A stretch of 63,432 nt of DNA, counting the filler, from Sluysia triapertura (lineage: Eukaryota): the NCBI GenBank assembly GCA_046118255.1. It is 5 parts of 5 records of this genome, joined end to end, with 100 filler letters (N's around TTAATTAATTAA, not from the genome) between each part and the next. Parts side by side here need not be neighbours in the genome. Positions count along the whole stretch, not along the records: positions 11,775 to 25,195 come from JBJNIA010040911.1; positions 25,296 to 36,607 come from JBJNIA010186112.1; 3 more parts are not named here. One strand, 5' to 3'. Under the pieces are notes generated by a model. That model searched no databases. It saw only the letters and a list, made by a program, of their open reading frames with translations, and was not told the DNA's origin. This document shows positions 3,049 to 48,122 of this stretch, piece after piece. Position 1 is the stretch's first letter, and every line of letters begins with the position of its first letter. The translations under genes and the position numbers were made by a program.

Positions 3049-3069
3049 AACAATGTCAACATTGCAGCT

Positions 3070-7111: not shown

Positions 7112-7487
7112 TCGATTCGCTGCTTTTGGTTGTTTTGGTTTTTCGCTATTGCCCACTGTGCCATGTCATCGATTTATTGTTAATAAACGTTCTTTGACTA
7201 TTGTAAAACGTATTTACTGGTTTTTGAGATTACCAATAAAGTGTAAGTTTTTAAGTTACTTAAATAAGATTTGAATTTAATTGTTTAAATTTTAAGCTGA
7301 GTTATTGTTTTATTGAATGTATTACTTAATTTTGTACTAAGTTACGAATATTTTGTTTTAAGTTTACTATAACCAACCCTAGCTAAGATTTAAGAATAGA
7401 TAAAAATAATAATAAAGATAAAACTAAGAAGAAAATTAAAAGAACATTAAGAAGTAATTCATTAGAAAGATTTACAATCACAGTAGC

Positions 7488-8757
7488 ATGTCTCAATTAA
7501 CCCAGAATATTAAACCAATGGTAATACTTCTTCAATTACGTAAGTTTAATAGCAATGAGGAAGATCTTTGTAACTTTTTGTTAGAATTCGATAGTATAGC
7601 TGAGGCGAATGGCTGGATAGGACTAGAGAAAATTAAGAGAATACAATACTATCTAACCGGAGTAGCGATACAAACATATAAGGAAATAGATAACGAATAT
7701 AAGAAAGACTGTAATATATTTGTTGACCACTTTACTGAGGAAATAGCGTTAGAATATATAGGAAAATATTAAGCAAAAATGCTAAAACAAAAATCTGATG
7801 AAATGGTTTATGAATTCGCTTGTGCACTTAAGAGTTTGGCATCAAGAGCCCAAAGTTCCAGAAGATAAAAAAGAGGCAACTTTAATAGACAAATTTAAAA
7901 ATGGGCTACGTCCCGAATTAGGAATTTACGTAAATTTAACTGATAATCTACAATTTAGAGATATAATTAAGAAATTAAGAAGTATTGAACTAACTGGAAA
8001 TAAATAAAGGAATAATGTAAGTTACATAGATGATAATACTAAAGGTGCAAGAAATAACGCTAATGAATTTTCTAAACAAAAATATAAGAATTCTTTTGAG
8101 GATAATAGTTATAATAATAACAGTGCTAATAATTTTAGAGGAGATAATAGAAGGAAAACAAATAATTTTCCACCGAGAAGCAGCACAAGCAGAAACTATA
8201 TTAATACGGATAGAAATATGAGAGGATTCGGGAGAGGACAGCCAAACAGTTTGGGTTCGAGAGAGTATGAACAGCGCCCATCACCAAGATAGCCTGACAA
8301 TAATAACGGTTTCTCTGCAAGAAATAAGAGTCTTGTAAGGTCTAATTATAACAACGAAGGTAATTACAAAATACGATCAAACATAGAAGGAAATATAGTC
8401 TGTCATAATTGTGGTAGGCAATGGACATTATGCTCGAAATAGTAATAAATTAAGATCAAATACTTTTAAACAAGACTTAAGATGCCAGAGTCTAGACAAG
8501 CTTCACCTAGGAGAGTAAGATTCGATAAGAATAAAAATGAGGGACAAATAAATTATAATTACGACGAGGAGTACGATGGCTATGTGTATGATGGACACCA
8601 ACGAAGACTAACAGACGAAGAAGAAGAGATGTTAAGGAAGTTCTGTAGGGCAAAGATGGATAGCGCTGAGAATAAGGAAGAAAGAAAACAACCAAAAGTA
8701 AACACGACGACGAAGACATGCTTATTAATTACTTACAAGAGTGTTTTATGCAACTAG
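7488..8757 (+). pseudogene. Ty3/gypsy-type gag (capsid plus CCHC knuckle), disrupted
   Basis: FDSIAEANGW...YYLTGVA, QKSDEMVYEFACALKSLA and LIDKFKNGLRPEL, then an RG/N-rich linker. A frameshifted zinc knuckle CHNCGRQ/GHYARNS lies at ~8401-8443. Confidence 0.8.
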
Positions 8758-10145
8758 TAAAGGATAAGGAAAAGGCAGACATAAGAAAAATGGAAACACA
8801 ACTGAGGGAAGAACGACAAAAATCTAAGATAATTAAAAGTGCTAAATAACTCGAAGAAGAGAGCAAGTATGCCGACAATAATATAACAAATGACTAGGAA
8901 GAAGAGTATAAGAGATCAACATTAGATGATATTGACTATTTGCTTGAAGAGGAAGGTAATGATACATTCTCAGATTCGGAACCAATAATCATTCTGGGAA
9001 ATGAAGAAGAGAGTAAAGAAGAAAGCAAGGAGCGCATTACACAAAAACCTACATGTAGCGGTTTATGTAAGGAAATAGACATATTTCTTTCAAATTTGGC
9101 TAAAGATAATGATATTGACAAAAATTTAGACATAATTTATAAATTAATTTAGATATGTTCAATAGGCAGAGCATTAGACCAAGTTTACTTTACTTAAGTC
9201 AACCAGATAAAGCGAGACAATTATTGAGAAAAATAGGTTTAGTCGATAGGATAAAACAGCCTGATACTTTAATGAAAATTAATATGTTAATTGATGAATT
9301 AATGGATTTCTTTCTAGAATTACCAGTCACTACATTAGTAGAAAACATAATAGACATAATCAGAAATTTAGAGCCTAGAGAGTTCTTAATTGATTATGGT
9401 TATCCGTTAGGCGACCATGAAGAAATAATAAAAGCAGTAATTATACATGAGATTCCTAAAAGTAATGAAAGAGAAATAAATGATTCTCCATGCACATTTT
9501 TAAGACAGTTAATGGAAGAGGATGATATAGAAATTAATGATAATAATGATGATTATATAAAAATTGAAAATGATAAAAATGATGAGCAACCTGATTATAT
9601 AGTAGATTTCAATAAGAATCCACATATAGAAACTTCAGATAAGGAAACAAATACATTAAAAAGGAGGCCTGGTCGGCCAAGAAAAGACGAAAACGAGATG
9701 AAAGTAATACCTATGACTAGAAATACTATTAATACTATTGATGAAATTGATGATGGAATTAAAATAGATACTAAAGGAATATTTTACGATTTCTTATCTG
9801 ATAAGTTCATTCATTTTAATAAGTATAAGAAATTACTAGTAGAAATTAAAAAGGATTATAGAAAAGGATTATAAATAAATTAGTAAGACACTTTGAAGAA
9901 AAGCATAAAAATAAAGATATCAGCGATTTCTTTATAAGTTAATAATAAATAAACAAATTAGTAAAGGAATAGATAAGGAAAAGTTTAAAATAATTTTGGC
10001 TCACATTATATACCAATGTAATCAGGAGAAGGTAATTACGAGAAATAAAATAGATAAAGTTATAGATTTTGTTAACAAGAAAACTAAATTATGGGTTGAA
10101 GAATAAGAATGTTGGAGAAATATAATAAAAAGAAGAGAATCAAAA

Positions 10146-11674
10146 ATGGAAGATCCGACTAATCCGATTACGCAATTATTCGGAAATAACGACAATTTGT
10201 TAAATACTGCAATACCACGAATGGGAAATTCATCAAACAATATATTATTTATTATAATATTGTTAGCTATGTTCGGCTTAAATAGAACTAATGCGATTAA
10301 GGCATTAGATTGCAGCCAACCAGAGATAGGTAGAAAATTTTCATTGTTAGATACAGAAGATTATCCGGAATCAATACCTAATCGATTACAAATAAAGGAA
10401 ACTAAAATAATTAGTGTTTACCAAAAAGGTAATCTAGTAACAACTATGATAAGGGAATGTTGGTAAAACGGGTATTAGCAATTTGGTATTGTGGTCATCA
10501 TAGTTATTCATCTATAATTGAATTATCAACTGTACTAAAACCATTTAAAATACTCTTCAAGCAATGTAGAGACACATTTGAGACAGGGTATATAAGCTTA
10601 ACAATGAAAAGATAATCTATAATATAAGAACTGCAGGTAATGCATTAATAGATGGAACATGTGAGCAAGGAACAATAGAATACAAAGAAAAAATTTATCA
10701 CAATGTGGTCGCAGAAGAAACATATGTTGTTAGTTTAAAATCATTTAACGAAAGTTTTGACATGGAGAAAGCACAATGATGTCTCAATCATATTGTAGAA
10801 GTGATCAAACTAGTTGCGACACAGGAGAATCAATATTAATCTATGAATTGGATAAATTTCAGTGTCCACTAATAAAATTTAAAATTTAAAAGAAATAAAA
10901 TTTAAAGTAATATCGGGATTCATTTATCAAGATAAAGATGAATATCCGATAGAAGAAATAAATAAAAATATTAACAGAATGCAGAGAAAAAGACTGGATG
11001 GAGTAGAAACGCCAACAATATTAATGGCCATTAGTGAAGAAGACGGTTCAATTTTTATTTCTGAAGGGACAATAATTCGGTGTGGAAAAGAAATAACCGA
11101 AACTAATTATTGTATCGGAAGAAACAATACAAATCGACTTTTACTATAATTTAGGTTTAATATCTTTGGAAAAGATTTACCAGATTATGGTTACTGGCGA
11201 TTGCTAATTGAATAAGGAGATTTTACGTAAGAAATTTAGTCGCATCATTACTACCGCTAGAAGAAGGATTTTTTGATCGATTAATAGGAGAAGTGTTATA
11301 TACATACAACTACCGAATGTACAAACGAATTACCTATATTGTACGATAAAATAGAAACATATCTAGAACCGGTAACCAGAGTGATTTTTCCAAACAAAAA
11401 GGTTAATGCATTGCTCCAACGTTATGGCTCCGGAAAATAGAATAGACGATAATTTGTGGATACCACTACCACACAGGAGCCAAGGGTAAGTAGTTTTCAC
11501 CTAACTTACGATGAAAATAGAAATCCGGAGAGAGTTCAACTAACAGAAACGGCTTAAGTCTGAACGACGGCAGTCTATTAGAATTTTAAAAGAAAGTTCA
11601 ACTTCGGAAGAGTCACCTAAAGATTATCAACTTAAGGTAAGGAGTACGTACGAGGAATATGAAGTTATTTTAAC
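10146..11674 (+). pseudogene. Envelope glycoprotein, chuvirus glycoprotein / gB-type family, disrupted
   Basis: A signal peptide (ILFIIILLAMFGLNRTNA) is followed by ALDCSQP...FSLLDTED, VYQ, AIWYCGHHSYSS, DGTCEQG, IDFYYNLG...DC*LNKEILR, GEVLYTY, TECTNELPILY and YLEPVTRVIF. This matches the motif order of chuvirus-derived glycoproteins captured by LTR elements. Confidence 0.8.
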
Positions 11675-11902: not shown

Positions 11903-13190
11903 TTATTGTGCTTCTTTTGTTTGCCGCATTTTTATCCTTTCTTTATACACTGGTGACGTAATTTCGACTGACGAGGTAGAGCATTTGCTTTGGTTTATTA
12001 TTGGAATCGGAGCTAAAATATTTAATTGAAGTTTTATATGCTCTATATTCGTGTGCATTTCTGTCTCATGAATTTCTTTACTTTCTTGAGTAATCACTGC
12101 AGAAAGCTCTTCTTGATTATTGATGTCAAATGGAGTTGTGCGTAAAAACTCTTTTGTAGGAGCGCAAATGTCATCTTCAAATTTATCCTTGTTGCATGGC
12201 CAACCATTTAAAGCAATATCCATACGAACTGATTTTGAATATGCAGTTCCAAGTAGTTCTGACACAGTAGTTTGTTTAATTGTGTTTCCAGGATTTGTTC
12301 TTAACCAGAAAGATGAGGCTTCGTTATAATTTGTTTTTAAAGATTTAAAAAAAGATCTATCCAACGGTTGGAGACGGTGAGTTATATGAGCAGGAAAGGA
12401 TAATATTATAATGCCATACTCGAACGCTAATTCTACAGCTTCAATATTTTTGGTATGGGTTGTGTGTCCATCCAAAAGGAGAAGTACTTGCTTATTGTTA
12501 CTCTTCTCCAACTTTGTGTACTTGATGAAATGTTCCAACCATTGCACAAAAAGTTCTGACGTTATCCATCCAAATACAGTACCCGGTGGTGCTTCTTTCT
12601 TTAAACAATCATTCATCCGCATGCTTTAAATGTTAACATAGGAGGTATGTATTTACCTGCATGCATTCATACAACACACACATGTAGTGGTCAAACTTCT
12701 TTCACCACTTCTAACTGCATCAACTTGTTGTTTGCCTTTCTGAGTAATTATTTTGGATTGCTTGTGAACAGTGGGTAATCCTGTTTCATCAACATTATAA
12801 ATCTGGTTAGCAGTGAAGTTAATACGGTACGACTTAAGACACAGCACACTAAAATTTCAAACTAAACATAACTTAATATTGAATAAAATTAATAGAATTT
12901 CGTTTCGACCAAGTGATTAGGTAAATTCTACTGAACTTATGTTTAATATGAAACATAATTTTATCAATAACTTACTTGCATGATTAACTACCAAATATAT
13001 CCAGAAAATTATAAGAAAATTGAAATAAACTTACTTGATGATAAAATTTACAACATGGCTTGCTTACGGTAAATAGCAATATGTCACGCAACTTAGCTCA
13101 CTCAGATGTATATTTGATTGCCGACGTATATGCTGTTGTCGCCGTAGTTTGTGCAAAATATATGTGGTACGACTTGAGCAACCTTACCCT
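11903..13190 (-). mobile_element. pogo/Tigger-family (DDE_1) DNA transposon relic
   Basis: IYNVDETGL...SGERSLTTTCVCC (12653-12847), then GWITSELFVQWLEHF, LLLLDGHTTH and FPAHITHRLQPLDRSFFKSLK (11903-12622). A probable terminus TA-GGGTAAGGTTGCTCAAGTCGTACC lies at ~13166-13191. The N-terminal HTH region appears deleted. Confidence 0.88.
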
Positions 13191-13551
13191 AACCTTTAAT
13201 AGAAATAAAGTATTCCTATTTTTATTCCATTAATAGGCTGACTAAATAAATGTACCATGTAGATATGCAAGACTAGAAAATTTTGTGAGTTAATATTTAA
13301 TTTGTTGTATTCATTCAAATGTAAATTTATAAAAATGTAATTTTTTGTGATTGATTAATGATTCACGTATTAATTAGGTATAAATAGAAAAGTAGATTTC
13401 AATTATTGAGCGAAAATGCACAAGGGTGATCTTATGTTCAGAGGATTAAACAATTAAGTTTCATTGTACAAACGATAATTTTATTTTAGTTTTAGTACTA
13501 AAAAGCAGCATTAAATAATAATGAATCGAGTGTTTATTTTTATATTTTCAG

Positions 13552-13754
13552 GAATGAGCATTGCATTGTGTGGATCACTTGGAACAAATAATAAACATAC
13601 GGTGGGCTTATCTCTTGATGCTCATTTAGAGTGAATAAGTTGCATATATTTTATATTTTAGTACGGCTAATTTTTCAATCTTTAATAATATTTTTGATTT
13701 TTACAGTTTCTTAAAATCAAATGCAGCGGATGCCAATATTTTAATGCTTCATAA
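13552..13754 (+). CDS. Two putative terminal exons of an unidentified gene (13552-13601, 13707-13754): GMSIALCGSLGTNNKHT/FLKIKCSGCQYFNAS*
   Basis: Polypyrimidine-CAG acceptors at 13551 and 13706 and a GT donor at 13602. Phases are compatible, the frame ends in TAA, and there is a CxxC near the C-terminus. No family recognised. Confidence 0.4.
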
Positions 13755-13954
13755 AGTTTACTTATTTAAGAAAATAATGTATTTTAATACATTTGGTAGT
13801 TTGTTATTTCGTGTATTTAAAAATTTTTATGAATGAATATAAAAAGCAACTCAAAATTATCAATTTCGATTACCAATACTAACCAGTAGGTAGTTGTTAC
13901 AGTGTAAAAGTATAATCTTGTTCAGTCATTTTTATTCTGAATTAGTGTGCCCTT

Positions 13955-14900
13955 TGTGGTGGCCAATTTTTCACTTAGAATTTAAACCATTAAATATCAC
14001 ATTTTCTTACATCTTATATTCCACCTTTTGCATTCCAAAACATTTTAAAGTCACAATTTTACATCAAGACCATACATCCAAAATCATTAATACACATTTA
14101 AATTTCATTTAGGACATCAGAACATCAAACTATCAAATATGCACTTTAAAAATTTATTAAAAACATTCTTACACAGTTTCATACCAACATAAAATCATAT
14201 TTTTCAACATCGCACATTTACTTTTTAGAATGTACCAAAATCTAGACTATCATGTATCTTCTTCACATCCACTAAACCACTCTTTTCGATACATTTTCAA
14301 GTCGTAATCTTCTAATATTCAAACTTTACCCTATTCAAAACCATCAAATATGCATTTTAAACTAATCCAAAACATTTCAATTCCATAATTTCTCAACACT
14401 CAATCTTGTAGATCATTGAAAAATATTAAAGTCACATAAAATCAATCTAAGACATAGTAATCAAAAAATCACTAGCATTACAGTAAATAAAGATATTTCA
14501 AATGTGTTAAGAACTTTAAATATGTCTAGATATAAAAGAAATTTAAGAAAATTCGTGTTTATTAGAACATTTTGCAAGGTTTATGTATTTATAACAATAA
14601 TAATAATACTGTTATTATTATCATCATTTTAATTTTATTTTGGCGTACATGTTTATTAAATTAACAATTTGGTAGCTACCACTATCAATATTCATATGTA
14701 CAGTTTATTATCACTATTGACAGTGGTAGTGATGACAATTCATACATGTAGCAATTTTCGATGTTAATGAATATTTTGTTGACTGCCCAATTAAAAAGTG
14801 TTATTTATCTGACAATCGTGATTCACATATCTCATTTACGAACCAACAACATGTTTTCATTATGTTGGTAATAAAAAACGAATCCAACATAATTTATTAT
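13955..14900 (+). repeat. TGTGGTGG-headed hairpin module, full copy 1
   Basis: Starts TGTGGTGGCCAA, then ~550 nt C-rich/G-poor tract and the motif aatgtgttaag...agaaaattcgtgt. Inverted repeats at 14676-14690/14715-14729 and 14842-14848/14863-14869. Confidence 0.7.
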
Positions 14901-14962
14901 ATATAAGTCAATTCGAATTATGGTAATAGTTAATAAGATCAGAAATAATTGGGGGACTGATA

Positions 14963-15286
14963 ATGTCGAGTACTCCAGAGATTCCGTTCAGCAGCAATAT
15001 AACTACTAAAAAACTGTCTTTGAACGAGAGAGTCGTTCAATTTGATACTTTTGCTAATGAAATTCAAAGGACAAGACCGGGTCTAGATGATAAGTCAAGA
15101 TGCTTCAAGTCTGGTTGGTGTATCTATACCGTAACTCCAGGTGGACAATGCGCAAAGTATGGTCGTAATTGTATTTACGTGCATTCTCCAAGTGAACTCA
15201 AGGACAATCCCTCTTGGACCTCAAGTTTGACAAATCACGATAATCGAATTCGGCAACTTCTTTCAACAACAAATACCATAAACTAG
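14963..15286 (+). CDS. Small single-CCCH zinc-finger protein (107 aa)
   Basis: FKSGWCIYTVTPGGQCAKYGRNCIYVHSPSEL gives C-x9-C-x6-C-x3-H with a TIS11-like lead-in and H..SEL tail. ATG start, raised GC, and a TATA-like TATATATAAG at ~14898. Confidence 0.65.
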   Translation: MSSTPEIPFSSNITTKKLSLNERVVQFDTFANEIQRTRPGLDDKSRCFKSGWCIYTVTPGGQCAKYGRNCIYVHSPSELKDNPSWTSSLTNHDNRIRQLLSTTNTIN

Positions 15287-16859
15287 AAGTATTCATATTT
15301 TTTTATTATAACTCTCATTTTATTATTATAACCACGTTTTATTATTATTTAATATTTTTTAGGCATGTAAAAAACCAGATTTTTACAAAAGACTTTTAAA
15401 TTTATCTTGTAATAAAATTTTCAATTTGATTCGAATAGATGTCAAATGTGCTTTATATTATTTTATGAAAATTATTGTTGTGTCTTAATTGAATTAAAGA
15501 AAAAATTTCATAATTTTAATCATGGCCTTAAGAGTAAACAAAAAAATGTAACTTCTTATTTTTACTTAAAATCCCTACAATTTAAACTACAACACCCTCA
15601 TTAATTAAAACGTTGATGGTAAACGTATTTGCATTCAATCCGCCTAATTCATATGAATAAGCAACAATGGCAATAGTAATCATTTCATGTAACCATTAAT
15701 AAAAATAGAATGAGAACCTTAAACAATTTACATTAGAAAATTGGGTTTGAACAAGTGAAAATCACTTAAATTCTAAAAACTAATTTAAATTCACTGTTAT
15801 TGTATAGTGACAATATCAATTTTTATGAATGTTATTTTAATTTGAGAAGCAATTTAAATAAAAGTAGATCGAGTAAAGTAAAATAAAGTAATGGTTAACC
15901 ATTAATCAGTTTTCTGCGCTTTCTGACTAATAAAATTTGACAAGCCATGCCAAGTAATTATCGAACTTTTATGGTCGGTCTAATAGTCGAATGAGTTTCT
16001 AATTATTTGTGTAAGAGAATATTTGTAAAACTCAAGCATTATTAAATAATGAGAAAGTGTGAAAGGAATATTTAAAAATTTTGAAATAATTACAGATATT
16101 TTATTACACACTAAAATATTTATAAAATTAATTTTAATATTGAGTTGACGGTATAAATGTATGAGTGTGAAGATGATAAAATACTAAGAAATCGAATGCG
16201 AATTATTGGTTTTGTTAAAAACTTGAAAATTATATTGTTACATATTAAATAGTGTGAGGATTTTGAATCACCATAATCGACTTTAGGCGGAAAAGTATAA
16301 AGTAGATTCATTGTTTATGTCCCTCTGAAGAAAGAGTCAAAACATATATTTAATAAGATTAATAAGACTTTTCAACCACCCACATGGTTTGCAGAAGACA
16401 TCAATCAAATCGGGTGGAGAGAAACATGGAATTATGATGGAAACAGCTTAGCCAGTATTAATACATATCATCAATGTCTTTATCCTCAAACAACTACTGA
16501 TTACATAATCAGTGAGTATTCATGTGAAAATTCCTAATATATACTGGAAGATTGATCTTAACTTCGCAGTGAAATTTTTGATGATGTGGAATATAAGCAA
16601 ACTGTATAATTTACCGTTTAATATGAAAGTACATTGCATGCTTGAAGGCAACGAAAATAAGTCACGAGTAAAATTATCGGATTTTACGTGTATTTTGATA
16701 TAGTTTAACACTATATAAACTTATTAAAAATAGCTTACAATATCTTCCAAAGAAAATTAGTTTTCTTTTCTGAATGATTTTCTGTAATTGACGAATCAAA
16801 TGTAACGTTCCACTTAGAATAATTCTTTCGCGATTCCAAAAAATTCCTTCTTTAATTAA

Positions 16860-17030
16860 GATTTCTCCGTCCCAAATTAATTTTTCCAATCCAAATAAAT
16901 TCTCGAACAGTAACAATAAGTTTTCTCCTTCAGTTAATTTCGACCAAATCGATTTTCCAATTCCAAATATAAATTCTCGAACAAATTTCGACCAAATCGA
17001 TTATCCAATCTAAAATTCTCAACAAGGAGT
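16860..17030 (+). repeat. Degenerate tandem repeat (about three units)
   Basis: Recurrent ttcgaccaaatcgatt(t/a)tccaat...aaattctcgaaca. Confidence 0.7.
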
Positions 17031-17499
17031 CTCCGTCAAAGATTTTTAACAAAGTTTTTTATGTTTGAAAGATTTTGTAAGCTTATTTATATTACTTTTT
17101 TGAATGATAATTTAAAGATAAATTAAAGATTTTATTAGGTTAAATTTTTCAAAAAATTATTATCTTTAACTAAAAATTGTATTTTTGTAAATTTATTGAT
17201 TAAAGATTTTTTATCTAATATTCATTTGGTTTTATCAAGTTTTTAATTAGTTAGATTTTTCATTTTTCAATTAAAGTTTTTAATTAACTGATAAAGTTTT
17301 AATTAACTGAAATAATAAATTATTATTTTATATAAATTACAATTTTTTAATACCATTTTTAATATTTAATACGATTTTTAATATCTACAATACGATGCTG
17401 AAAAGAAATTATAGACACAAATTATCACGGTAGTTATTTATCGGAAAATATAAATAAAGACGTATATAAATAAAGATAAGTAAAAGATAAATAAACAAG

Positions 17500-18300
17500 C
17501 TAAGAAAGGAGCAGATTCGAAAAATTTAATACTTATTTTAACAATAAAATAGACTTTTATTATCATCTCGGATTGCTCAAGATTGTCAGTTGAACAAAGA
17601 AATATTACGAACAAAATTGTCAGTAGCTACAACAAATCCAGATTTAGTTGCTCCATTACTACCTTTAGAAGTAAGAGATTTTGTAGATTAATGGGAGAAG
17701 TGTTGTACAGGTACAAGTGTAAAAGGTTAGAGTACAATTAAACCCAGCTACCGAATGTACAAATGAGTTGCCTATATTATAGGGGAAAACCGAAACAAGA
17801 ATAATATTTCCGAGTAATAAAATCAAACCAAAATTAATGCACTGCTCAAGTGTTATGGCTCTAGAATATAGAATTGATGAAAACCTGTAGATTTCACTAC
17901 CTCACAGAACTCGAGGAAAGGAAAATTGAAATTTTTAACTACTATGAAGATATACAAGCAGACTGGCAAGAAATACTATTCCCAAGAAAAGCTCAAAAGT
18001 ACTAAGAGACATAGTAGACAAAGAAACACTTGAAAAATATGGAAGAATAAACTTCGAACTGCTATTAGGGCCAGATCATTTCAAGAAGGCCGCTTAAGGC
18101 AAATTTCGAGTAGTTTTTAGATTTAATGTCAAGCCTTCGGATGAGTTGGCATTTACATAATAATCAAGGTAATTGCATTAGTTATATCTCAGGTCTTTTC
18201 TGTTTTAGAAATTTCCAGAATCTCAGGATTTACCTGGAAATTGTTAATTGGTTGTTAATTTCTAACGCTTTTATCCAGCTAGTCCAACTTTAATGTTTTC
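17500..18300 (+). pseudogene. Second relic of the same chuvirus-like env (C-terminal half)
   Basis: YFNNKIDFYYHLG, QDCQLNKEILRTKLSVATTNPDLVAPLLPLE, LMGEVLYRYKC and TECTNELPIL. Nucleotide similarity to ~11130-11480. Confidence 0.8.
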
Positions 18301-18593
18301 GAATTTAATGTTTTTATATTTAGAACTTTATTAATTAGGATACAAAAGGTTAGTAGTTTATTAATTTGATTGAAATACATTAATTTATGAAAGAATTATT
18401 AAATTTATAAACATTAAAACACTTATAAAAGTGGACTTAGGGTCCTTAATCATATAAATTGAACAAGAACAATACAAAAAGTCCTTATATATTATACGAA
18501 TTGTCAAAATAACAATAATAAAACGAAAATAATAGATAAAATAATAAACAATGTTAATTTAATTATGTAAGAGACCATGTCCAACATAGAAAG

Positions 18594-18845
18594 TCAAGCT
18601 TCGGCAATCAGTGGCGTTTCCGACAACACAACATATAGGTTTTGATATATTTTCCGAGCGATTTCTTGCCTCACGAACAACCTAGTTACCAATTCTTCGA
18701 TACGATGAAACGCATCTGTACTAAAGCTCAAAAATTTAAATGGCTCTGAATAAAACGTGACCGTATGGTGTTCTCTAACCGACACCATGAACCTTCCAAA
18801 AGTTTGTTTCATTAAAATACTACTCTTGTCTTGCAAAACACTCAA
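18594..18845 (-). CDS. Orphan ORF or pseudogene (83 aa), function unknown
   Basis: Locally GC-richer open frame. The nearest upstream ATG is out of frame, and the first in-frame ATG is internal. Confidence 0.25.
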   Translation of the reverse strand: MSVLQDKSSILMKQTFGRFMVSVREHHTVTFYSEPFKFLSFSTDAFHRIEELVTRLFVRQEIARKIYQNLYVVLSETPLIAEA

Positions 18846-19227
18846 GAATATACTCTTTTAGTCATTAATTCACATGAATTCAAATTTAAAATTCTATGTA
18901 GTCTTTTTTTTTCATTTTTTTAAAGTCAGTACTGGTATCGACATAGGAATCCTATTAAGATTAATTAATTTAATGTTACGCGATGTGATTACACGTTTCA
19001 CAATTGTCAATGGACTTTAAATATCTGAAAATTTCGAAAAAAGAAACATGGAAATTCAGTATGTAATGCACTTTAAGAACGTTCATTATAATGTTTTAAA
19101 TAATCTTTCAAATTAAGCAATTTGCTGCATTTAACTTGATTATTTAACGTACAACAAATACAATCAACAGTTGTGCAAAACACTCCTCTGTCTGATTGAG
19201 AACAATTTTCAAAATTACTGATATCTC

Positions 19228-20400
19228 TGTAGTGGACGACCTTTATAACTATTAAAAATTAAAAAATTTTAAAAAGAAAAACTAATTAAACCCTCAACAC
19301 CTCAATATTTACACATTCACAAAACAGTTCTTTTCCTTAATCTAAGCTATATTCACAAACTTATAATAATTAAACCACAATTACATTTAATACCAACAAA
19401 TTTATCTGAAACATGTAAATTATCTACTTTACACCTTCGAATCAATTATAACATTTTAAATTAACTATTCGTCTATGAATAATCACCAACAACACAATAC
19501 AACACCATCAAAAACATCAAATAAACAAATCACATAAAACATTGTACAATAATATTTTAAATATACCAAGAGTTGTATTGTAGTTGCCCTTTTACATTCA
19601 CCAAACCATAATTTTCTCAATAGGTCTTTTATCCACGATCTTCCAATACTTACATGTTGTTCTCAATTATGAACTTTAATCACCATCTAAGAACTTATTC
19701 TAACATTCTCTATTTCATTTCACTACTTAAATCATTACTTAACTACACTTATCAATTCACTTAAAGCAATTAAACTCAGAAACTTTACTTCCGAACACAT
19801 TTTAAATTTATTGCATTTAATTTTATCATTTTCTATTTCAATTCATTTTAAAATATGTTAAGAGATTTAAGGAAAACGATAGGAAGATCGTGCACGGTTT
19901 TAAAGAATTCAAGTTCATGCAATGCAATAACAACAATAACTCTAACATCGTGAATCTTATTATTGTTGTTATTGCATTCAATCTCATCAATTTTTATTTC
20001 ATTTTAATTTATAATATGTTGAGAAGAAAGTACTAAAAGAAAGAAAGCTCATGTAAAATTATTATAAGAAACTTATTCATTTTTCTTTTCCTTGTTAATA
20101 ATAATAATAACAATATTGTTATTTTTAATATTATTATTATCAAATTATCATTTTATTTTTATAAAAATTTATTAACTAAATTTATGTATTATAATTTGTT
20201 ACTAACATCACCAGTGTTGCAATTGCTCATCACAATCATCTTTATTATTGTGTCAACACTGATGATGGTCAATTATTATCCTTTACCAATTCATCAAAAT
20301 TCCACTTACATAACTGTCATCCAATCAGGTCTAATTTCATTAAACAATACTCTAGAGAATCCTGATTGGATGACCAACCACGGTCATAATCTAAAAAGTA
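19228..20400 (+). repeat. TGTGGTGG-headed hairpin module, full copy 2 (TGTAGTGG variant)
   Basis: C-rich tract ~19280-19830. The motif aatatgttaag...ggaagatcgtg occurs twice (~19853, ~20013). Inverted repeats at 19921-19939/19960-19978 (19/19), 20206-20219/20254-20267 (13/14) and 20316-20329/20361-20374 (14/14). Confidence 0.75.
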
Positions 20401-20545
20401 AATTGCTAAAAATAAAACATTACAATTATTCAATAAAACTTTTAATTGTTGGAGTGTTTATTGATCAGAATTTCGTACATTGTTGTTGATATTATAGTAT
20501 TTTACGTTTTATATTATATTAATTGTAAGAATTTTTTTAATTAAA

Positions 20546-21760
20546 ATGTTTCAATCCAAATATGGAGATCAATTATTGGAATCTAAGTTACAAGTACTAT
20601 TTACAAATTATCCATATCCAACTAATGATGAAGTACTATCTTATGCTCCTAGTTCATTTCAATGAAATGATTGCGATATTTTTTATGAAAAACTGCCATT
20701 GTTAGGAGATTTAGGATTTAAATTTTCTCATATTAGGAAAAAGACAATCCTGATGACAATCAAAATTGCTCTATGATCAATCTCAAATCATTATTCCTAT
20801 CACAGTAATCTCTCTTTATGTCGTTTCTAAAGATTATATAACATTAAAGTTATTAATATCTTATCCGGATAAAATTGATGAAATTAAGATCGAGCCGACA
20901 TTAATAAATCAACATCGACGACAACCGAAGATTATCTATGAAAACATTGCTGTTAATTCTTCATATTTACTATTAGATGTTATTTTAGAGTTATGCAAAA
21001 ATTTGGTATCTACTTTAAGCTTAAAGATATGTGATTCAACTCTATGGTTTAGATCACGACCTATAAAAGGATTGAACGGAACCAAATCAATAAATGCTAT
21101 CAATTCTAAATTGCAAAATTATTTAATAATTTATATAGTACAAACAAAATGCTTAGCAGATTTCATCGTTTTGTCTATAATTTCTAAAGAGTCCGATTTC
21201 GTATTATCGTTAATTTTAGTAAATCAGGATGATAAATTCAATAAATTAAAGTTTATTTTGGTTCGAAACATATAATATTCAGAAGATTGTCGTTTGTAAT
21301 AGTTTATATGCTTTGATTCATTTAGTTAAATTCACCAGAAAGATTCAACAAATTAAAGTTGTTAGTATAACTGATATTCGAAGTAGTATAAATGAAGAAT
21401 ATATTCCTGATCTCTTAGTTAATCTTACTCTTAATTTTATGTCAAATATTAATCCTCAAGATCCTTCATTCGATTTAACCATTTTACAACCAAATTTCAG
21501 ATTTCAAATACTTTGTATTGTTCCAATTGAACTCACTGATACAGAAACGTTTCACATCTATATGAGAAAGTACAATGATGTCGAGCTTCCTCAAAGTAAA
21601 TACGACCACGACTATGGCGAAATTACATTTGTAGTAAATTTTTATTTTTTCCATTCTTTTATTTAAATATTTTATTTAAAAAATCTTTTATTTAAATATT
21701 TTACCTTTTTAGACTGTAAATGCGGCACAAGATCTCATGAGTTGGATGCAGTCATGAAAA
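20546..21760 (+). pseudogene. Disrupted orphan gene, possibly with a degenerate RRM-like C-terminus and a short terminal intron
   Basis: ATG at 20546, then co-oriented ORF pieces 20766-21275 and 21313-21666. A GT..AG at ~21631-21712 could join HDYGEITF to TVNAAQDLMSWMQS*. Confidence 0.35.
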
Positions 21761-22499
21761 TAATACACTTGAACATATTATTGAACAAAAATTTAAAAAT
21801 TACTTATTGTTATTTTAATTTTTTTTATAAAATAATAAAATTTTGTTTTTGTGTATTTTTTAAACACGTTTAGACAATGAAATATTAAGAAATAATTGTA
21901 ATTTTAAAAAAGAATCTTACAAAATAAAAGATAGTATTAAGAATTACGAACATGCTAGTTCAAAAGCACTCAATAATAACTTTAATAACAATAAATTCAT
22001 CAAATTTCACTACTGCAATTTTATATCGTGTAGTAGACCATCATCAAACAGATGTAAAGACCTTATCATAATTTCATTAATTTTTTATAGAGCAAAACCA
22101 CCTAATCATTTTCAGGCCATACAACTCATTTTTCCCAAAAAACTTAATTATAAAGATTACAATAGTAACCATATAAATTATTATCATATTTTATATATCA
22201 TTTTTATTTTAATATACTTACAATTTATTGAATTTTTTGTTTATTGTATATAAAGTAAGGGCCACTCGGTTGAAAAATATGTGCAAATTTCAGTTTAATT
22301 GTAAAGGCTTATTAAGGATACCGTTTTTTCAATACAGTAGTAAAATACCACTTAATATATAATTGTTAATTTTATAAAAGAAAAGAAAAAATACAAAATT
22401 TATATATTGTCCAGAGCTTCTACGCAAAAGATACGATTACATTCATTTTTACTTTAATATTTGTAAATACCTCCGATTAATTTCTTCTTGATTGCTACT

Positions 22500-23010
22500 T
22501 ACAACTTAGCCCTTAAGTGAATAAGACTAACATTGTAAGGGACTAGAAAAAAACATTAAACTTAAAGACAAAAATCTTGCATAACCAATAAATAATTTAA
22601 TAATTAATTTAATTATTTATTATTTCTAAATAATTCATTATAAAAATGCGATATTTTATTTTTAACAACTCGAGTCTAAGAAAATTATTAGAGGTACAAC
22701 CCACTCATATGCAGTTTCCGATTTTGAAATTAAATTATATTGTTCATAGCATTAAGTAATTAAGTAAATATCTTCAGATTTAAAATAATACAAAGTCCAC
22801 GAGTAGTTAATATGTTTCTTAATATCTTCCTTCTGGACATAAATTGTTGATTATTGATGGACTAAGACAATTTATTATTTTGTAAGTTAATTTAGAAATA
22901 GAAAACACTTGCAAAAACTATCTATTCCATATGAAACAACTACAATTTTTTAAAAATATTTCGTTTTTATGTATCTAGTTTTAGAGAATTTTTGTTCTGC
23001 AACATTTGAT
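22500..23010 (-). mobile_element. Possible highly decayed LTR-retrotransposon integrase fragment
   Basis: Faint ordered motifs: DSFCK, NNQQFMS, KHILTT, LNAMNN...SETAYE. Confidence 0.25.
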
Positions 23011-23232
23011 AAACAAATTTAGTATTCTAAAAATAAAATACATTTTCAAAATTGAAGAGAAATAATTAGATATTTTTAAATAAAATTTAATTTAAAATTA
23101 TAATTTTAATTTATATTTTTTAATTGCACATTTGTAATGTGAATTAAAACATGCATTTTCCCAACATTTTATTTTGAAATGAATTATGAAATTACGTCGA
23201 AACCTTTGGTTTCAGTAATTAATGTTTTATAT

Positions 23233-23302
<70 letters not shown>

Positions 23303-23317
23303 GTAATAATAATAATA
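23233..23317 (+). repeat. Compound microsatellite (AAC)n(AAT)n
   Basis: Directly visible. Confidence 0.95.
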
Positions 23318-25108
23318 AATCAATTTAATATCTACTCAAAATAGCTTAGTGATTGTTATATTATAAATTTACATCCAATTCTGTAGTTAGTTTAACTTAT
23401 TTATGTATTTCAAAAATGGAGTCCATGTTTTACATAATATTATTTGAAGTAAGTTCTGATTTAAGTCATTACTTTTCGAATAGCACTTTATCTCTTTCAA
23501 AATGAATTAGATCAAATTCTGACTATTTGAATATCATTATCAAAAATAGCATATTTAAAATATATTTATTTTAAATATATTTTATAAATCAAAAATAAAA
23601 TGATGTATATCTTAAGTAAATTGATTTAACTTATTGATTACTGAAATTTAATATCTAATATCTATTATGAAGTTAAATTTCAATATTTAATTTGACACAC
23701 CTTGATAAACATATTTAACACAATTAATAGTACTAATTCATCTTATGAAATATTCTGGATAAATGAACAGTTCATGTATATTAATCAAAATGATTTATGT
23801 AAAATAATATATTTATTTATACTTGCAAGTTTTTTATCTTTATACTTGCAAGTTTTTTACCTTTTCTTACCTAACTCGCAAAATAATACAATTCAATATT
23901 ATGGTTCACATATAGTCAAAGCTTTATAAAACGTCGCTTGAGAATTTTCTAATAATATTAATCTTGGTGAGGGTCTTTGCTTCACATTCTATACTTTATT
24001 ATATCTTGATGCTATAATTTGTTTAAATATTTTTTTCTTTCTTATATTTAATCCTTATGAATGAAAAAGAACTCCACATTTGTAATTGTCTGTACCAATA
24101 TGTAAATGATTCTTCTACTGTCCTCGAAATAATAAATCTTAATCACCCAATAATATTAATAACAGTTTAGCTAAAAACAAAATTTATCTATTGAGATTTA
24201 GTTCTGATTGTAAAACTTTTGATTTTAAGATTATTTTCTAACTAGATTTAATATATCTCAAAAATAAAATGTCAGTTTATATCTAATTTCATCCCTTAAC
24301 TTAATTAAGGGTACAACTTATCAAATATAACTCACGATATCAAATGATTTAATTAAAACTGGAACACAACGATAATTTTAATTTAAACCGGAACGTCTTT
24401 AATCAGAGTCAGAACATTTTTGATTCAAGCAATAATTATCCCAAATCAACAAAATATCGTAAATCATACTTATTTTCTGTTTTTTATTGTACCTGCTTTA
24501 GACGTTTTCGCTACTTACACACTACTGTGTATTTAGCTTTCCTTTTAAAGATAAATTTAAATTCCTGAATTCAATTTAAATTCAAATGATTTTTTATTTC
24601 ATTTCGACAATCACTTATTTACAATTTTAATTTTATTTTCAAGATTTAAATGAATTTTATTTAATTAATTTAATTTTCATTTTCACAATAAATAAATTAT
24701 TTATTCTATGCAATAATATACTTAGATATTTAAAATTTCGATAATATTGTAAAGTTATTTATTATTTTATTGCTTAAAATTTAGTTATATGCTTTAATAT
24801 TTAATTATTTTTAATTGTTTGATTTTAATTTGCGCAGTTAAGTTGATTTGATATTTGATACTGGAATTATAATCTGGTTCTCTATTAAATGCTAAATTTA
24901 ATATGAGGTCGAATTCACATAGATATGATAACAAGTTATAATCTAAACTTTATTTATCAAAATTACATAAAATTACTAAACGAATTTAAATTTGTCACAT
25001 AAAAATTTCGCTAGATTTGACCGGAAATTTAAAATATTTTATAATGTAAAATACTGCACTGACTCTAAAATCCAAAATTAATGTCTTACAAACATTTATA
25101 AACTAATA

Positions 25109-25195
25109 CTCCCTCTGCCCGAAAATAAGAGTCCCATTTCTAAATATTAGGTTTTTTTATTGATTTAAATGGTATGAAGGGATCAAGTTTTCATT
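25109..25195 (+). mobile_element. Terminus of a Stowaway-like (Tc1/mariner-group) MITE, cut by the spacer
   Basis: TA-CTCCCTCTGCCCGAAAATAAGAGTCCCATTT resembles the CTCCCTCCGT-type TIR after a TA target. Confidence 0.5.
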
Positions 25196-25295
25196 NNNNN
25201 NNNNNNNNNNNNNNNNNNNNNNNNNNNNNNNNNNNNNNNTTAATTAATTAANNNNNNNNNNNNNNNNNNNNNNNNNNNNNNNNNNNNNNNNNNNN
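25196..25295. other. Artificial spacer
   Basis: N44-TTAATTAATTAA-N44. Confidence 0.97.
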
Positions 25296-25629
25296 AGTAA
25301 AAAGTATGACTGTTGGGAAGATTGCATTTTAATGAAATTTGATTTATAGATATTAGGTTTAGTAGTTTGATTAGGTTTGAATTATGAATGTTGACCACTA
25401 CAAATGCGTATACTTTTCGACTATCATTCGTTTTTAATTGAAGTAAAGTTGGCAAACATATATATGAATTAACAGTTGTCTGAAGCTAATTTTTACAAAA
25501 GATAATACTAATATGCCAAATATTCACTTATAAAAATCAATATTCCAATTTCTATTATTAAAAAGGTGGATCACACAATAAAAATTAAATTCTTTTATAA
25601 AATTATGTTTTGCACACCAACTGTGTATT

Positions 25630-26660
25630 TAGTAACAATTATTGGTTGTCCAACCAAAACTACCGTTTACATTATTGTCATCTTTATTGATTGGACAACC
25701 AATAAAAGTATAGACTATTTTAGTTAAATGATTATCAGTAATGATAGTAAATGGTATATAAAAATTGATAGTTCATTCCTGATAGTGATATCTATTAAAT
25801 ACGATTAACGAACTTAAAATAATTGATTTGTAAATTAAAATAAGCTGAAAATTAAAATAAACTAATAATGAGAATAAATGATAATAATAACAAATTATAG
25901 AAAATATAAAAACGCATAAATATTTTCCTTTTTATACACGAACTTTCTGTTGAATTAACATCCTTTCTTTACATATTAATCTTTTGCTTATAAGTGTGAA
26001 TGTTATTGTGAAATGTGATAAAAATATGGCTTTGAAATGTTTTGAGTGAAAATAAGATTGAATGTTGAAATCGTGGATTAAAATGTTCTGAATAAACTTA
26101 AAACTGAAATTACGGTTTGAATGTTGAAAACTTATGAATTAAAATGTTTTAAGATATTAAAAATGATTTTGGAGAATCTGAAAGAATTGAAATATATCAA
26201 TGGTCTTGTTACTTTCTAAAAGTAGTTGTGAGATGTAAACAAATGTGATTATGGTTATGCTGTTATAGAACTATGAGTAAAATGTTTGAATTTTTTTAGA
26301 TGTCTGTTATTACTCTGAAAGTTTATGTACTTTTAATGTTATGAAGTACGAAATAGAGATGTTTTGAGAAGGTTAGGATAAGATTTTAGTGGAAGTAAAG
26401 GAAATAAAATGTAAAAAGGTTTAGATGTAAGAATAGTTAAAATATTATGGAATGTGATTTTATGTAAAGTGTGTTGAATTAATTTTGCAGTATTTTGGAT
26501 TAACGTTTTTTAGTAAATCTTTGATGATTTTCGGTATTGAATGTGAATCTGATGTTATGAAATTTTATGTTTAGAAGTATTGAGAATTATGAAATGTTTT
26601 GAATAGAAATTTTTGTGTGTTATTGGAATAAAATTTCAAATCATTGAGTTGGCCACCACA
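25630..26660 (-). repeat. TGTGGTGG-headed hairpin module, full copy 3 (reverse orientation)
   Basis: TGTGGTGGCCAA starts at 26660 on the minus strand, followed by a tract that is G-rich on + (~25990-26650). The minus-strand motif aatatgtaaag...agaaagttcgtgt lies at ~25935-25978. Inverted repeats at 25733-25744/25773-25784 (11/12) and 25639-25653/25691-25705 (15/15). Confidence 0.75.
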
Positions 26661-29600
26661 GTGTGAACGTAATAATGCAAAGATAAATGTTGATTTCAAA
26701 TGTTTTATTTTGGTCATTATTGTTTATTGCAAAGCAAAACTGATTTTCGTGAGATTATTTGGTAATCTTAATATTTTTAGTTATCATTGATTTTACTATA
26801 TCATTTTTATAATGTTTGTTTAAATTATTCTTTATGGTTTCATTAATAATTGGTACAATAAAATTAAATTGTCGTGAGTGACCATTTATCTACATTTATT
26901 GTTTCGTTGGTAGTAAGTATCCATACGTTTATAGTTGGTAATGTTAATTTAGTTTGAAAACTTAATCTAATTGTTTGCTTAATTCAGAAATGTTTTCTTT
27001 ATTAGTATCATTTTATAATAATCGAATTGTTCAATATTGTTTTGGTTATTCTAAGTTAAGTTCAACAATTATTGCTGTTAAAGAACAATTCATCCATTGT
27101 TTACTAAAATTACCGAAAAATAGGTAGGGTTTGGTTTTTATCCAATAATGTTGCATAAATATTAATCTATTGGTTAGTTCTATGATTATCTTAACTTTAT
27201 ATAATTGAAACTCAAATAGTTCTTCAGAAGTTATTATCCAATACTTTATGGTTTTATATAGACCAATTATTTAAACAACATTTTATAGATAGACTAATTA
27301 ATTTCTTATCTATTTCTTTGGCAACAACTAAAATCTCATCTTCTTTGGCTTAGATAGATAAATGTATGTCGTTATAATACATAGTGGTTATACAGGTTGG
27401 AAAAATGCATAGCAATACTGATGATATTTGTATTCCATTATAGTGTGTTGGTAATCTTAAGTCTGTATTATATTCATATAATGGAGATGGCATTATATGG
27501 CTGTCCTGGAGGAGCAGAAAAATTATTAATTCTTGGAATTGAATAGTGATTATGAGCGTCGTCATTAGAGGATGAATTCGTATATTTGCATTTATTCATA
27601 ATGAACATCATAATCATAATGCAATAGTAAATAATGTTGCGGCAATTATTAAAATTCTTAATGATAGACCTTTTCGTAATGAATCTAAAATTGTTGAATC
27701 TTTCTTATCCCATTGAATTGCAAAATGGAGTTTAATAATTTTAGCATGACTTTATAAAAATTATTATGTCTTCAGAAAGCAAACAATCCTTACAAATCGT
27801 TACATGACATTCCGTATTAGGTATTGTATGTTTGTGTATTTCCCATTTACTAAAATTAAGTCTCGCTGGACTGATACATATGTAGTGTGCTTTAATATCG
27901 GTTTTTGTCATTTTAATTTGTACTTCTGTATCATAATTGTAAAAGTCAAAGTATTTTGATCTATAAACTCTGATGCATTTGTAATTGTTAAAGTAAGTAG
28001 TACATTATTAACTTTCATGATTTTATTGCAGATAAGTATGAAATAAATAGTAAATAACATATATCAACAGTGATGTTATGAAAGCATTTTTTATGTCCAG
28101 CTTTCCTTTCTTAAAACTCTCTAATGTATCGTTACTCAGTTTATTAGTGACATTGGTTTTTTACTTACTACCGTTGTTGATGATGTATGGTAATTTCTTA
28201 CTTGTTAAAACATGTTTTCTATTAAATATATATCTGTTAAATTTAAGATTGTTGATTTATTACAGTATGAAAACCCTATTATTGTAGTGAAATAAATTGA
28301 ATGTTCACATTGAAAAATATTATCTATTATTGAAGGTTTCTTTATCGATAATAGTTTGAAGTATATGCAATATATGTCCAAGTTATAATTAGGAACTTCG
28401 TTTCTACTATAAATTTCTACTGTCCAATATCGATTAAAAATATTTGTCAAGAAGATTTCTTGTTTAGTATCGATATATTTTGTTAAATTTGAAGGGTAAG
28501 ATGTTACTATTATTATTAATTGAATAAGTAATAATATACAAGTTATTATATAGAGAAATTTTTACTTTGAATTCCTCTTATACATATTATGCTACTGCTT
28601 TTGCTACTATATTATTACCATTGTATGTTTCTACACCGATGTATTTGATTGAGAGGTTGAAGAAATAGTAGTATTCCACCAGTCGAGATTTTCTTAATTT
28701 GGAGTTGGCGTTCGTGGTCTTGATGGATTTAATAACAGGTGCAATATCTTCACTTTACATTAACGGGGTATGATCTACCTTAATTATAACAAAGGAATAA
28801 TAAACAAGATCATGAATTATAATATATTGTTGTGCACCAAAATGGTACACTTTATAACAAGGATAAAATAGAAAATACTTAATAAAAGGTTTACACAAAA
28901 TTTTACTTGATAGATACAGAATGTTAATGACTTTGTAGTATTGCCAGATTTTTTGAGCTTAAGACACCCGTACTTATTGAATGTTTGTAACATTTTATGA
29001 TAATATCTCTTTTAATAACAGTTGTAATAAACTTTTTTGTAGTTAGGAGATATATATATATATATATTTCAGGGTTGTATCAATTATTTCTAGAAACCAT
29101 TCCCATAGGAATTTTTGTATAATTCACGTAAGGAGAATCATTATCTGTTCCAAAATTGCCAGAATGACCTTGTTTCATTTTCGACATGACACCAGTTTCA
29201 CACTTACCAAGTCAATCATAAATTCAAACAATGTTAATTGACCATTTTCTGCATTATCGAACGAATCAAAAACTACTCCTAATTGTTCTTTTACAATTTC
29301 GATAAATCGTTTCAATAAATCAGCATTCAGATGTCTGATTAAATTTAAAATAAGGTCTGACTAATTTTATCATTCCAATAACGTACAAATTTTATAAGTT
29401 TCCTTTTTAAGGCTACCGTAATTTAAAATAATTTTTTAAGATCTTGAATAGTTCTGATACTTTACGCAACACTAAAATGATATCTTTCACGTTAACTTTC
29501 ACCATGTTTATCTTTTATTGATGGTAAAATAAGATCTCGACTTGGAAACTGATACCGCCGAATCAGCGCAAAAATAATGATAAACTTTGGATAACTCTTG

Positions 29601-29836
29601 CTATTAAATGTATGGAATAATTTTCATTGATCTAAATTCACTCTCAAATAATGACAAACGACTTTTACATTGATTTTCTTTTAGTTTCTTCATAATTTGA
29701 AACATGATCCTTTGAAGTATTGACAAATACATTTACAGTAGTACTACTTTCATAATTTATCACACTTTAAAAATTAAATAATGAATTAAGCCACCACAAT
29801 CCAATTTTTAAAATGTTAATATTATTAATTGTTTAG

Positions 29837-29986
29837 TCTGAAGATGACAAAAGTACAATCGATAATTTAATGAGAGAACGAGATTTTTATTTCAACAAGT
29901 TACGTGATATTGAAGTGCTTTGTCAAGAAGAAGGTGAAAATAATCAAATTGTTGCAAAAGTATTAGAAATATTGTATGCCACTGAG
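29837..29986 (+). CDS. EB1: Microtubule end-binding protein EB1 (RP/EB family), penultimate exon
   Basis: SEDDKSTIDNLMRERDFYFNKLRDIEVLCQE...KVLEILYATE is the EBH domain. TAG acceptor, GTAAG donor, 150 nt, phase 0. Confidence 0.95.
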
Positions 29987-35941: not shown

Positions 35942-36030
35942 AGATAAATGAAGTGAGATCATGCGTCGTAATGACTAGTAAGCCAAAAATGTATGTTCTA
36001 ATGATAATTAAAGCAAGACCATATGTATCA
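35450..36030 (+). repeat. 30-nt minisatellite with a 90-nt higher-order structure
   Basis: Seven units of agatcatgcattgtaaagataactaaagtg type, then about four cycles of three distinct 30-mers. A 4-nt deletion lies near 35928. Confidence 0.95.
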
Positions 36031-47966: not shown

Positions 47967-48122
47967 TAATAATTAAATCTGATTTGGATACGTTAACATA
48001 ATTATAATTAAATATTAAGAATGTGTTATTTATTACTACTTTTTAAACGCAGTAATAAACAAAGTATTAATGCAATAAGTTGAATTTTTGATCTTTCTAA
48101 ATCATTAAATTATAAATTTCAG

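Follow-up and report, generated by a model that had tools for sequence, protein, structure and literature searches.

The 63,432-nucleotide (nt) stretch of the Sluysia triapertura genome analyzed here (the window; assembly GCA_046118255.1, ca. 25% G+C) contains three long copies of a structured module that starts at a short TG head and continues through a C/A-rich tract, a promoter-like motif and folded stems to an ATG. The heads lie at 13955 (+), 19228 (+) and 26660 (-), and in copy 2 the head occurs in an A and an AC variant. Spacers cut the window into short segments, one of which holds copies 1 and 2 and the next one copy 3; the head positions and the spread over two assembly segments had both been given in an earlier sequence-only reading, and they hold. 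Decayed mobile DNA is abundant across the window and interspersed with host-gene exons, such as those of a HECT ligase. The search for further copies, heads, stems and motifs covered the 63,432 nt of this window, 5.6% of which is occupied by the modules.

Homology among the three copies is real but deep. Measured against shuffles in 30-nt blocks that kept the local composition (40 per pair, loose alignment scoring), the pairs reached z values of 9.6 (copies 1 and 3), 4.8 (copies 2 and 3) and 2.8 (copies 1 and 2), with 0 of 40 shuffles as high in each case, and none of 120 random window regions matched any of the three pair scores. Support within the module, from head to ATG, was patchy (z of at least 2.9 in 6 of 18 segment tests), while the three upstream-flank and three post-ATG segment tests peaked at a z of 1.2 (upstream flanks, -1.1 to 1.2). 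Leave-one-out profile searches recovered copy 1 well, with an E value of 1.4e-4 over 14516-14755, but copies 2 (E 0.022) and 3 (E 0.026) weakly. A profile search found no further long copies in the window; 15707-16082 and 38272-38647, considered as extra copies, proved unrelated to the module. We rejected hidden coding sequence as an explanation of the modules, given that no reading frame is common to the copies, and copies 1 and 2 are too diverged (z 2.8) to be the two long terminal repeats (LTRs) of one element. Rfam gave no match at gathering score for a ribozyme, internal ribosome entry site (IRES) or microRNA in the window, with one microRNA-hairpin match below threshold (29.7 bits versus 67), and hammerhead or IRES identity was rejected for want of Rfam support. 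No description of the module came up in the literature abstracts searched, but such elements are usually recorded in repeat libraries.

Two features of the anatomy are common to all three copies, as had been claimed. The first is the C-rich, G-poor tract behind each head, located at 13965-14495 (+) in copy 1, where it has degenerate internal repeats, 19238-19840 (+) in copy 2 and 25990-26650 (-) in copy 3. These tracts have 20 to 21% C and 4 to 5% G over 530 to 660 nt, are the strongest 500-nt skew regions in the window and carry 100 to 177 CA dinucleotides per kb, versus 52 in the window. The second is AATATGT followed by TCRTG at a spacing of 34 to 36 nt, a pattern picked after the copies had been seen, which occurs at 5 of the 31 AATATGT sites of the window, four of them within modules. 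It stands at 14519-14558 (+) in copy 1, with a TATA-like box between its halves, at 25936-25977 (-) in copy 3, with a TATA-like box directly after it, and twice in copy 2, in a duplicated unit at 19808-20055 (+) (161-nt spacing, 82% identity over 56 nt). The TATA-like boxes of the long copies share no aligned position.

Folded stems accumulate within the modules: among the perfect stems of the window that reach 10 bp or more and include three or more G/C, nine in all, four belong to the modules (P about 0.001). The stem with CCAA is homologous in copies 2 (20316-20374, +; 14 bp perfect) and 3 (25639-25705, -; 15 bp perfect, z -5.8). All 13 aligned pairs hold in both copies, three of them changed on both sides and one by a G-U change, while slid controls pair at 8 to 50%. 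The sequence-only reading had placed this hairpin in all three copies, but the stem model found no counterpart in copy 1, where the matching place is unfolded (z +0.5) and a later 10-bp stem at 14859-14893 (+) is a different, unrelated one. Likewise, the CAT/GAT-type stem stands in copies 1 (14676-14729, +; z -2.3) and 2 (20206-20267, +; z -3.1) but is weak in copy 3 (25733-25784, -; z -1.05), whose sequence there is homologous to that of copy 1 (z 5.1). The AAT/ATT hairpin is confirmed as a stem in copy 2 (20092-20143, +; z -4.3), is no better than shuffles in copy 1 (14589-14632, +; z -1.2) and does not form a stem in copy 3. Copy 2 has in addition a perfect 19-bp stem at 19921-19978 (+), inside the duplicated motif unit.

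The heads themselves are more widespread than the long copies. The window has 10 TGYRGTGG sites, against 1.2 expected from composition, and a C-rich tract follows 7 of them, against a background of 2.3% (P 3e-10); leaving aside the three given copies, the proportion is still 4 of 7 (P 9e-6), on a pattern set after the heads had been seen. The sites at 12683, 29798 and 50672, which have no C-rich tract, were taken as chance. All seven remaining heads begin with TG at a sharp homology boundary, with unrelated flanks upstream, which indicates insertion; the base preceding them varies (T, T, C, T, C, A and T). The published 5' motif TGTGGYG of the CsRN1 clade (PMC3601003, Table 3) is exact in four of the seven, among them the copy 1 terminus (13955-13964, +), and the copy 2 head (19228-19237, +) has one mismatch to it; seven other published motifs matched none. 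The head of copy 3 (26651-26660, -) adjoins decayed coding-like DNA that by eye resembles the last part of a gypsy integrase.

Three of the additional heads open short elements that resemble solo LTRs, at 170-493 (+; 324 nt), 37302-37603 (-; 302 nt) and 48426-48726 (+; 301 nt). The first runs from TGT to ACA and has a TATA-like box, a poly(A)-signal variant and a T-rich 3' part. It is colinear end to end with the second (body z 11.1; flanks z -1.6 and 0.0) and related to the third (z 4.6), the second and third having no significant relation (z 0.9). In the three of them, ACA lies near the end of homology, although these ends were chosen by eye within ca. 10 nt and lend modest support, and a TATA-like box lies at an offset of 123 to 142; aligned poly(A)-signal variants precede a G/T-rich tail in two. 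No ATG-started open reading frame (ORF) of more than 29 codons was found in the 300 nt after any of them. What links them to the long copies is mainly the head and tract. The element at 48426-48726 comes just after an exon-like frame (48084-48368) and is probably intronic, since that frame appears to be part of a HECT gene with its last exon at 57706-58047.

Behind the long copies, the sequence-only reading had seen three different orphan ORFs, and unrelated coding DNA does follow copies 1 and 2, but not copy 3. ATG-started ORFs of at least 100 codons number 15 in the real window against 0.5 in shuffled windows, and an ATG opening at least 100 codons begins in 1.8% of 100-nt stretches; thus, the coding DNA is real and its placement after two of the three long copies is probably no coincidence, in a test made after the fact on a sample of three copies. 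The ATG had been placed ca. 95 to 180 nt after the last hairpin, which was not confirmed, the measured distances being 70, 172 and 180 nt in copies 1, 2 and 3.

The ORF behind copy 1 (14963-15286, +) is intact over 107 codons and encodes one Unkempt-type CCCH finger (residues 46 to 81). It matched Pfam PF25427 with an E value of 2.7e-7 (30.9 bits; cut-off, 31.1) and PDB 5ELH with an E value of 0.0012, the finger aligning with Unkempt. A search for relatives of similar length gave one candidate, none significant, and no exact sequence in the collection. The full protein scan gave 14 matches at an E value of 0.001 or lower and 30 to 40% identity, all of them multi-stretch proteins, the best stretch falling in or beside the finger in 13. 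A CCCH gag of the Saci-2 type (raised by PMC2582038, as far as its available text goes) was not adopted, because the available text gives no spacing for it and the finger aligns with Unkempt. One targeted literature search brought up no LTR element with a single Unkempt-type finger, a weak indication that the arrangement is undescribed. Just upstream, at 13550-13770 (+), two short exon-like pieces with splice-like edges and no Pfam match suggest that copy 1 lies in or beside a host gene.

Copy 2 is followed by a broken coding region (20546-21666, +), with 39 codons to a stop and then open frames in other phases at 20757-21275 (172 codons) and 21250-21666 (138 codons). Relatives of these pieces were sought among 838 longer candidates, with none significant; in NCBIfam 0 of 7 proteins were matched, and the first Atlas matches, 0.86 and 0.89, were under the lead threshold. 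A single-sequence fold reached a predicted local distance difference test score of 34, too poor for a structure search. A separate 150-codon stop-free frame at 20037-20489 (+), 101 codons from its ATG and with a hydrophobic stretch, spans the hairpins of copy 2; none of 1,000 local shuffles reached its length, it is absent from copies 1 and 3, and the region is rich in triplet repeats. Two decayed pieces precede copy 2, namely, a fusion-protein-like remnant at 17561-18121 (+; weak Pfam match, E 0.0011), ca. 1.1 kb upstream and 66% identical to 11234-11476, and, just upstream, a DDE_1-like piece at 18560-18900 (-) seen only by eye.

In copy 3, the ATG at 25459 opens only 11 codons. The place of the supposed ORF is taken by a fourth head with its C-rich tract (25296-25402, -), cut by the assembly spacer, and the 81-codon frame nearby has no ATG, takes in the spacer and crosses the head at 25402. 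Copy 3 and this fourth head are too diverged (z 1.0) to be the pair of a TRIM, a miniature retrotransposon with terminal repeats. On the other side of the copy 3 head, at 26661-29900 (-), words that we take, by eye, to be reverse transcriptase (RT), RNase H and integrase stand in order, and this unconfirmed decayed region appears to be interrupted by the head. Searches for pol upstream of copy 3 returned nothing from Pfam, PDB or 3,837 database candidates. Hand-made pol patterns matched in four of five cases, with 0 of 1,000 shuffles reaching four, but were set aside as circular because they had been composed with the sequence already in view. A 3' LTR identity for copy 2 or 3 is disfavored, since no polypurine tract precedes the head, although it would be possible if the join was deleted.

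Taken together, we consider it reasonably probable (ca. 0.62) that the modules are the 5' ends, LTR plus structured leader, of diverged Ty3/gypsy-type LTR-retrotransposon families, without membership being proven. Several long-diverged families would share one integrase end signal. The 8-nt head would be the integrase attachment site, the C/A-rich tract a U3 enhancer region, the AATATGT..TCRTG zone a core promoter and the T-rich stretch R/U5, and the stems may be RNA leader structures such as packaging or dimerization signals. The ORF behind the leader, presumably transcribed from the LTR, could be native to the element, as its first or an accessory ORF, or else a piece of host mRNA acquired by template switching, and the short elements would be solo LTRs of sister families. 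By now the copies would be decayed, nested and truncated amid other transposon debris.

Within this explanation, that the ORFs belong to the elements falls a little short of an even chance; a native accessory ORF is rather unlikely, captured cargo slightly more so, and long solo LTRs standing beside unrelated genes are a little less probable again. Cargo capture is possible for copies 1 and 2. A bolder version, which we regard as unlikely, would be a non-autonomous LTR clade of an AT-rich invertebrate with a fixed integrase end, promoter and structure-conserved packaging leader that swaps its single ORF for unrelated host-derived pieces, here the isolated Unkempt-type finger and the orphan gene, and expresses them, as a modular cassette that launches genes and spreads itself; in that case the intact CCCH ORF might encode a functional small RNA-binding protein that targets host transcripts or takes part in element silencing.

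Several observations weigh against the modules being LTR retrotransposon ends. No exact target-site duplication (TSD) of 4 to 6 bp surrounds any of the three short elements, and none is credible for the long copies, although such duplications may have been lost to decay. None of the seven heads is preceded by a polypurine tract, a feature that 5' or solo LTRs would not be expected to show. Among the TGG sites that follow the core, none is shared by the three long copies and none matches the CsRn1 tRNA-Trp primer site; likeness to tRNA ends amounts to just 6 to 7 nt, in copy 1. In the same, short contigs, no direct partner LTR above shuffle level was found for five of six heads, the sixth (37603) being marginal (score of 41 versus a shuffle maximum of 34). 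Neither gag nor pol was detected after the long copies, copy 3 being cut by the spacer, and no 3' end could be assigned to the long LTRs, where the CA candidates, several in number, lack the backing of a TSD or primer site. The final 200 nt of copy 1 before the ATG have no demonstrable homology to the others, which stops near 14755; long-short homology beyond the head is weak (one of nine pairs at z above 4), and the covariation shuffle control for the CCAA stem (68 of 500) was uninformative because only two sequences were at hand. It is also hard to reconcile an intact ORF with an adjacent element whose age sufficed for both TSD and interior to disappear: copy 1 must be younger than the DNA around it, its far end lying beyond the segment, or else the CCCH ORF has been maintained. 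Because TSD, polypurine tract, a clear primer site, partner LTR and gag/pol are missing, we do not file the modules as proven members of an LTR family; these gaps fit decayed, nested and truncated copies on short segments without proving them.

Pack-MULEs carry long terminal inverted repeats and an 8- to 11-bp TSD, and Helitrons start with TC, insert between A and T and have a 3' hairpin/CTRR end. The suggestion of Pack-MULE- or Helitron-like behavior in the sequence-only reading finds no support: the contigs have no inverted partner end, and the heads, to which the Helitron comparison was confined, start with TG after T, C or A. More broadly, TG-terminated DNA transposon ends (Ginger-like or Mutator-like) carrying pieces of host genes are improbable. 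Ginger termini follow TGTNR, with terminal inverted repeats of 40 to 270 nt and, in Ginger1, a CCGG/CCGT target duplication (available sections of PMC2836005). Six of the seven heads fit TGTNR, copies 1 and 2 each have unrelated coding DNA behind them, and Pack-TIR elements in animals are the subject of PMC8277862, judging from the part available. However, no inverted repeats of 40 to 270 nt were found here, an inverted copy of the first 200 nt was absent from the rest of the contig for all six heads searched, 14000-25195 has no minus-strand head with a C-rich tract, the two ends of the short elements, both visible, share only TG..CA, and the flanks are not the CCGG/CCGT of Ginger1.

Similarly improbable is that the module is a 5' untranslated region (UTR) containing an internal promoter and belonging to a non-LTR or tyrosine-recombinase retroelement in which ORF1 differs from family to family. 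Such an origin would explain the unrelated first ORFs and why TSD, primer site, polypurine tract and partner repeat are all missing. Nevertheless, neither RT nor recombinase could be detected behind copy 1 or among the copy 2 ORFs, and for the frame at 21864-22253, in which some words look endonuclease-like by eye, Pfam, NCBIfam and PDB returned no endonuclease. This origin also leaves the 300-nt TG..CA relatives with their TATA-like boxes unaccounted for.

A dispersed regulatory cassette owned by the host, either the promoter and 5' UTR of a fast-evolving gene family or an exapted gene-launching element, would suit an ORF that is intact over 107 codons amid decayed neighbors, as well as the double-sided changes in the stem of copies 2 and 3. 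We regard it as very improbable, given that copy 2 has a broken gene and copy 3 no gene at all, that an ORF of more than 29 codons stands behind none of the three short relatives, and that the sharp TG terminus with unrelated flanks is a mark of insertion. The cassette launching new genes proposed in the sequence-only reading is without support here. Its mobile element with a promoter-like 5' module fares better, since homology starts at the TG head and four more elements share that head, but the three cargo ORFs drop to two. The outcome that it had named as adverse to itself, namely, that the module is the LTR or UTR of an ordinary retrotransposon, is the likeliest, because the head matches a published LTR terminus, although it is not proven.

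Convergent composition among unrelated C-rich low-complexity stretches is largely excluded: AT-rich DNA does align readily (pairs no better than shuffles still have ca. 66% identity under loose scoring) and many single segments lack significance, but the z of 9.6 between copies 1 and 3 came from shuffles that preserved local composition, none of the 120 random regions did as well, and the copies have in common the head, a fixed motif spacing and an aligned stem with compensatory changes. Readings beyond those considered here receive a minimal share of the probability.

Other mobile and repeated DNA in the window is varied. At 7458-11674 (+) lies a decayed retroelement in which a gag-like start and broken zinc knuckle, both seen by eye, lead into a long acidic region and the remnant of a mononegavirus-type fusion protein (weak Pfam match, E 6e-4). 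No pol was detected between the gag-like and fusion-like parts, a layout that recalls Burro. The window reads as animal DNA, and its composition together with this layout would make a triclad flatworm a plausible source. A DDE_1 (pogo/Tigger-like) transposase occupies 11903-12625 (-; Pfam E 1e-17), and 3333-6453 (-) is a decayed non-LTR-like region with a weak RT match (E 0.047), R2/NeSL-like by eye. The start of a CsRn1-type element can be read by eye at 50560-51180 (+), with a possible LTR end, primer site and gag and protease words but no Pfam support; it differs from the short elements in having a C-rich LTR-like end. The two sequences rejected as extra copies (15707-16082 and 38272-38647) are 73% identical and read as decayed minus-strand coding DNA with no Pfam match. 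Two copies, ca. 80% identical, at 2797-3103 (+) and 6773-7111 (-) form a small orphan ORF family, and a 30/90-nt tandem repeat at 35465-36026 (+) keeps a long open frame of 10-residue repeats. Small two-copy repeats of 77 to 93% identity (47069-47166/50414-50510, 37718-37887/54183-54346, 40661-40758/44489-44588 and 53578-53690/54646-54746) are probably miniature transposons.

If the modules are LTR ends, their value lies in the annotation of undescribed, deeply diverged families that are recognizable only by an 8-nt end, a strand-skewed composition and folded stems. Were the cargo explanation true, this would be an animal case in which LTR elements routinely carry and express unrelated pieces of host sequence after a single conserved leader, and the stem that shows compensatory changes would offer a ready candidate for the packaging signal.

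Among known systems, the CsRN1 clade (CsRn1, PwRn1 and AgCR), as described in the available parts of PMC3601003 and PMC2582038, resembles the modules in its termini: near matches to TGTGGYG in three heads add to the four exact ones, and the short relatives, at 301 to 324 nt with TGT..ACA ends, fall inside the LTR range reported for mosquito CsRn1-like elements (146 to 407 nt; PMC2582038). The order of TATA-like box, poly(A)-signal variant and G/T-rich tail in two of the three short elements resembles the U3-R-U5 layout of animal gypsy LTRs, and CA/CAA stretches occur in the U3 of some retroviral and gypsy LTRs (both in the sections available of PMC3601003). In contrast, the long copies measure 0.8 to 1.3 kb and show none of the tRNA-Trp primer site, CHCC gag, polypurine tract and 4-bp TSD given for the clade there, and the ends of the short elements fit the CsRN1 3' motif MSYYAMA just in part. 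The accessible portions of PMC12471100, PMC8532177 and PMC11410931 contain no LTR sequence for comparison.

In their way of working, the modules would also be similar to the giant gypsy elements Burro, of planarians, and Ogre, in which, according to the available text of PMC6431247, a 5' region is followed by family-specific accessory ORFs with host-like domains, upstream in Burro. A mononegavirus-type fusion match is a further likeness to Burro, found here in window remnants, while a CCCH finger is not among the domains listed for it in that text and the modules have no polyprotein behind them. LTR elements across animals have captured partial host mRNAs between their LTRs (PMC5131818, in the part available), and these LTR-mediated retrocopies, like maize Bs1, have a counterpart in the partial, intron-less, host-like piece with its Unkempt-type finger behind an LTR-like 5' end; they need both LTRs and microsimilarity at the joins, whereas neither a 3' LTR nor a parent gene can be seen here. 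Finally, ta-TRIM and the solo LTRs of taeniid tapeworms (available sections of PMC4558846) differ in the two 198-nt LTRs, primer site, polypurine tract and TSDs of ta-TRIM, none shown for the modules. Even so, tapeworm elements have packaging signals conserved as structure only, eight terminal LTR bases common to a non-autonomous element and its helper, and solo LTRs that drive neighboring transcripts (PMC4558846, same sections), and it is these eight terminal bases shared by otherwise dissimilar elements, together with a structure-conserved interior, that the modules of S. triapertura resemble.

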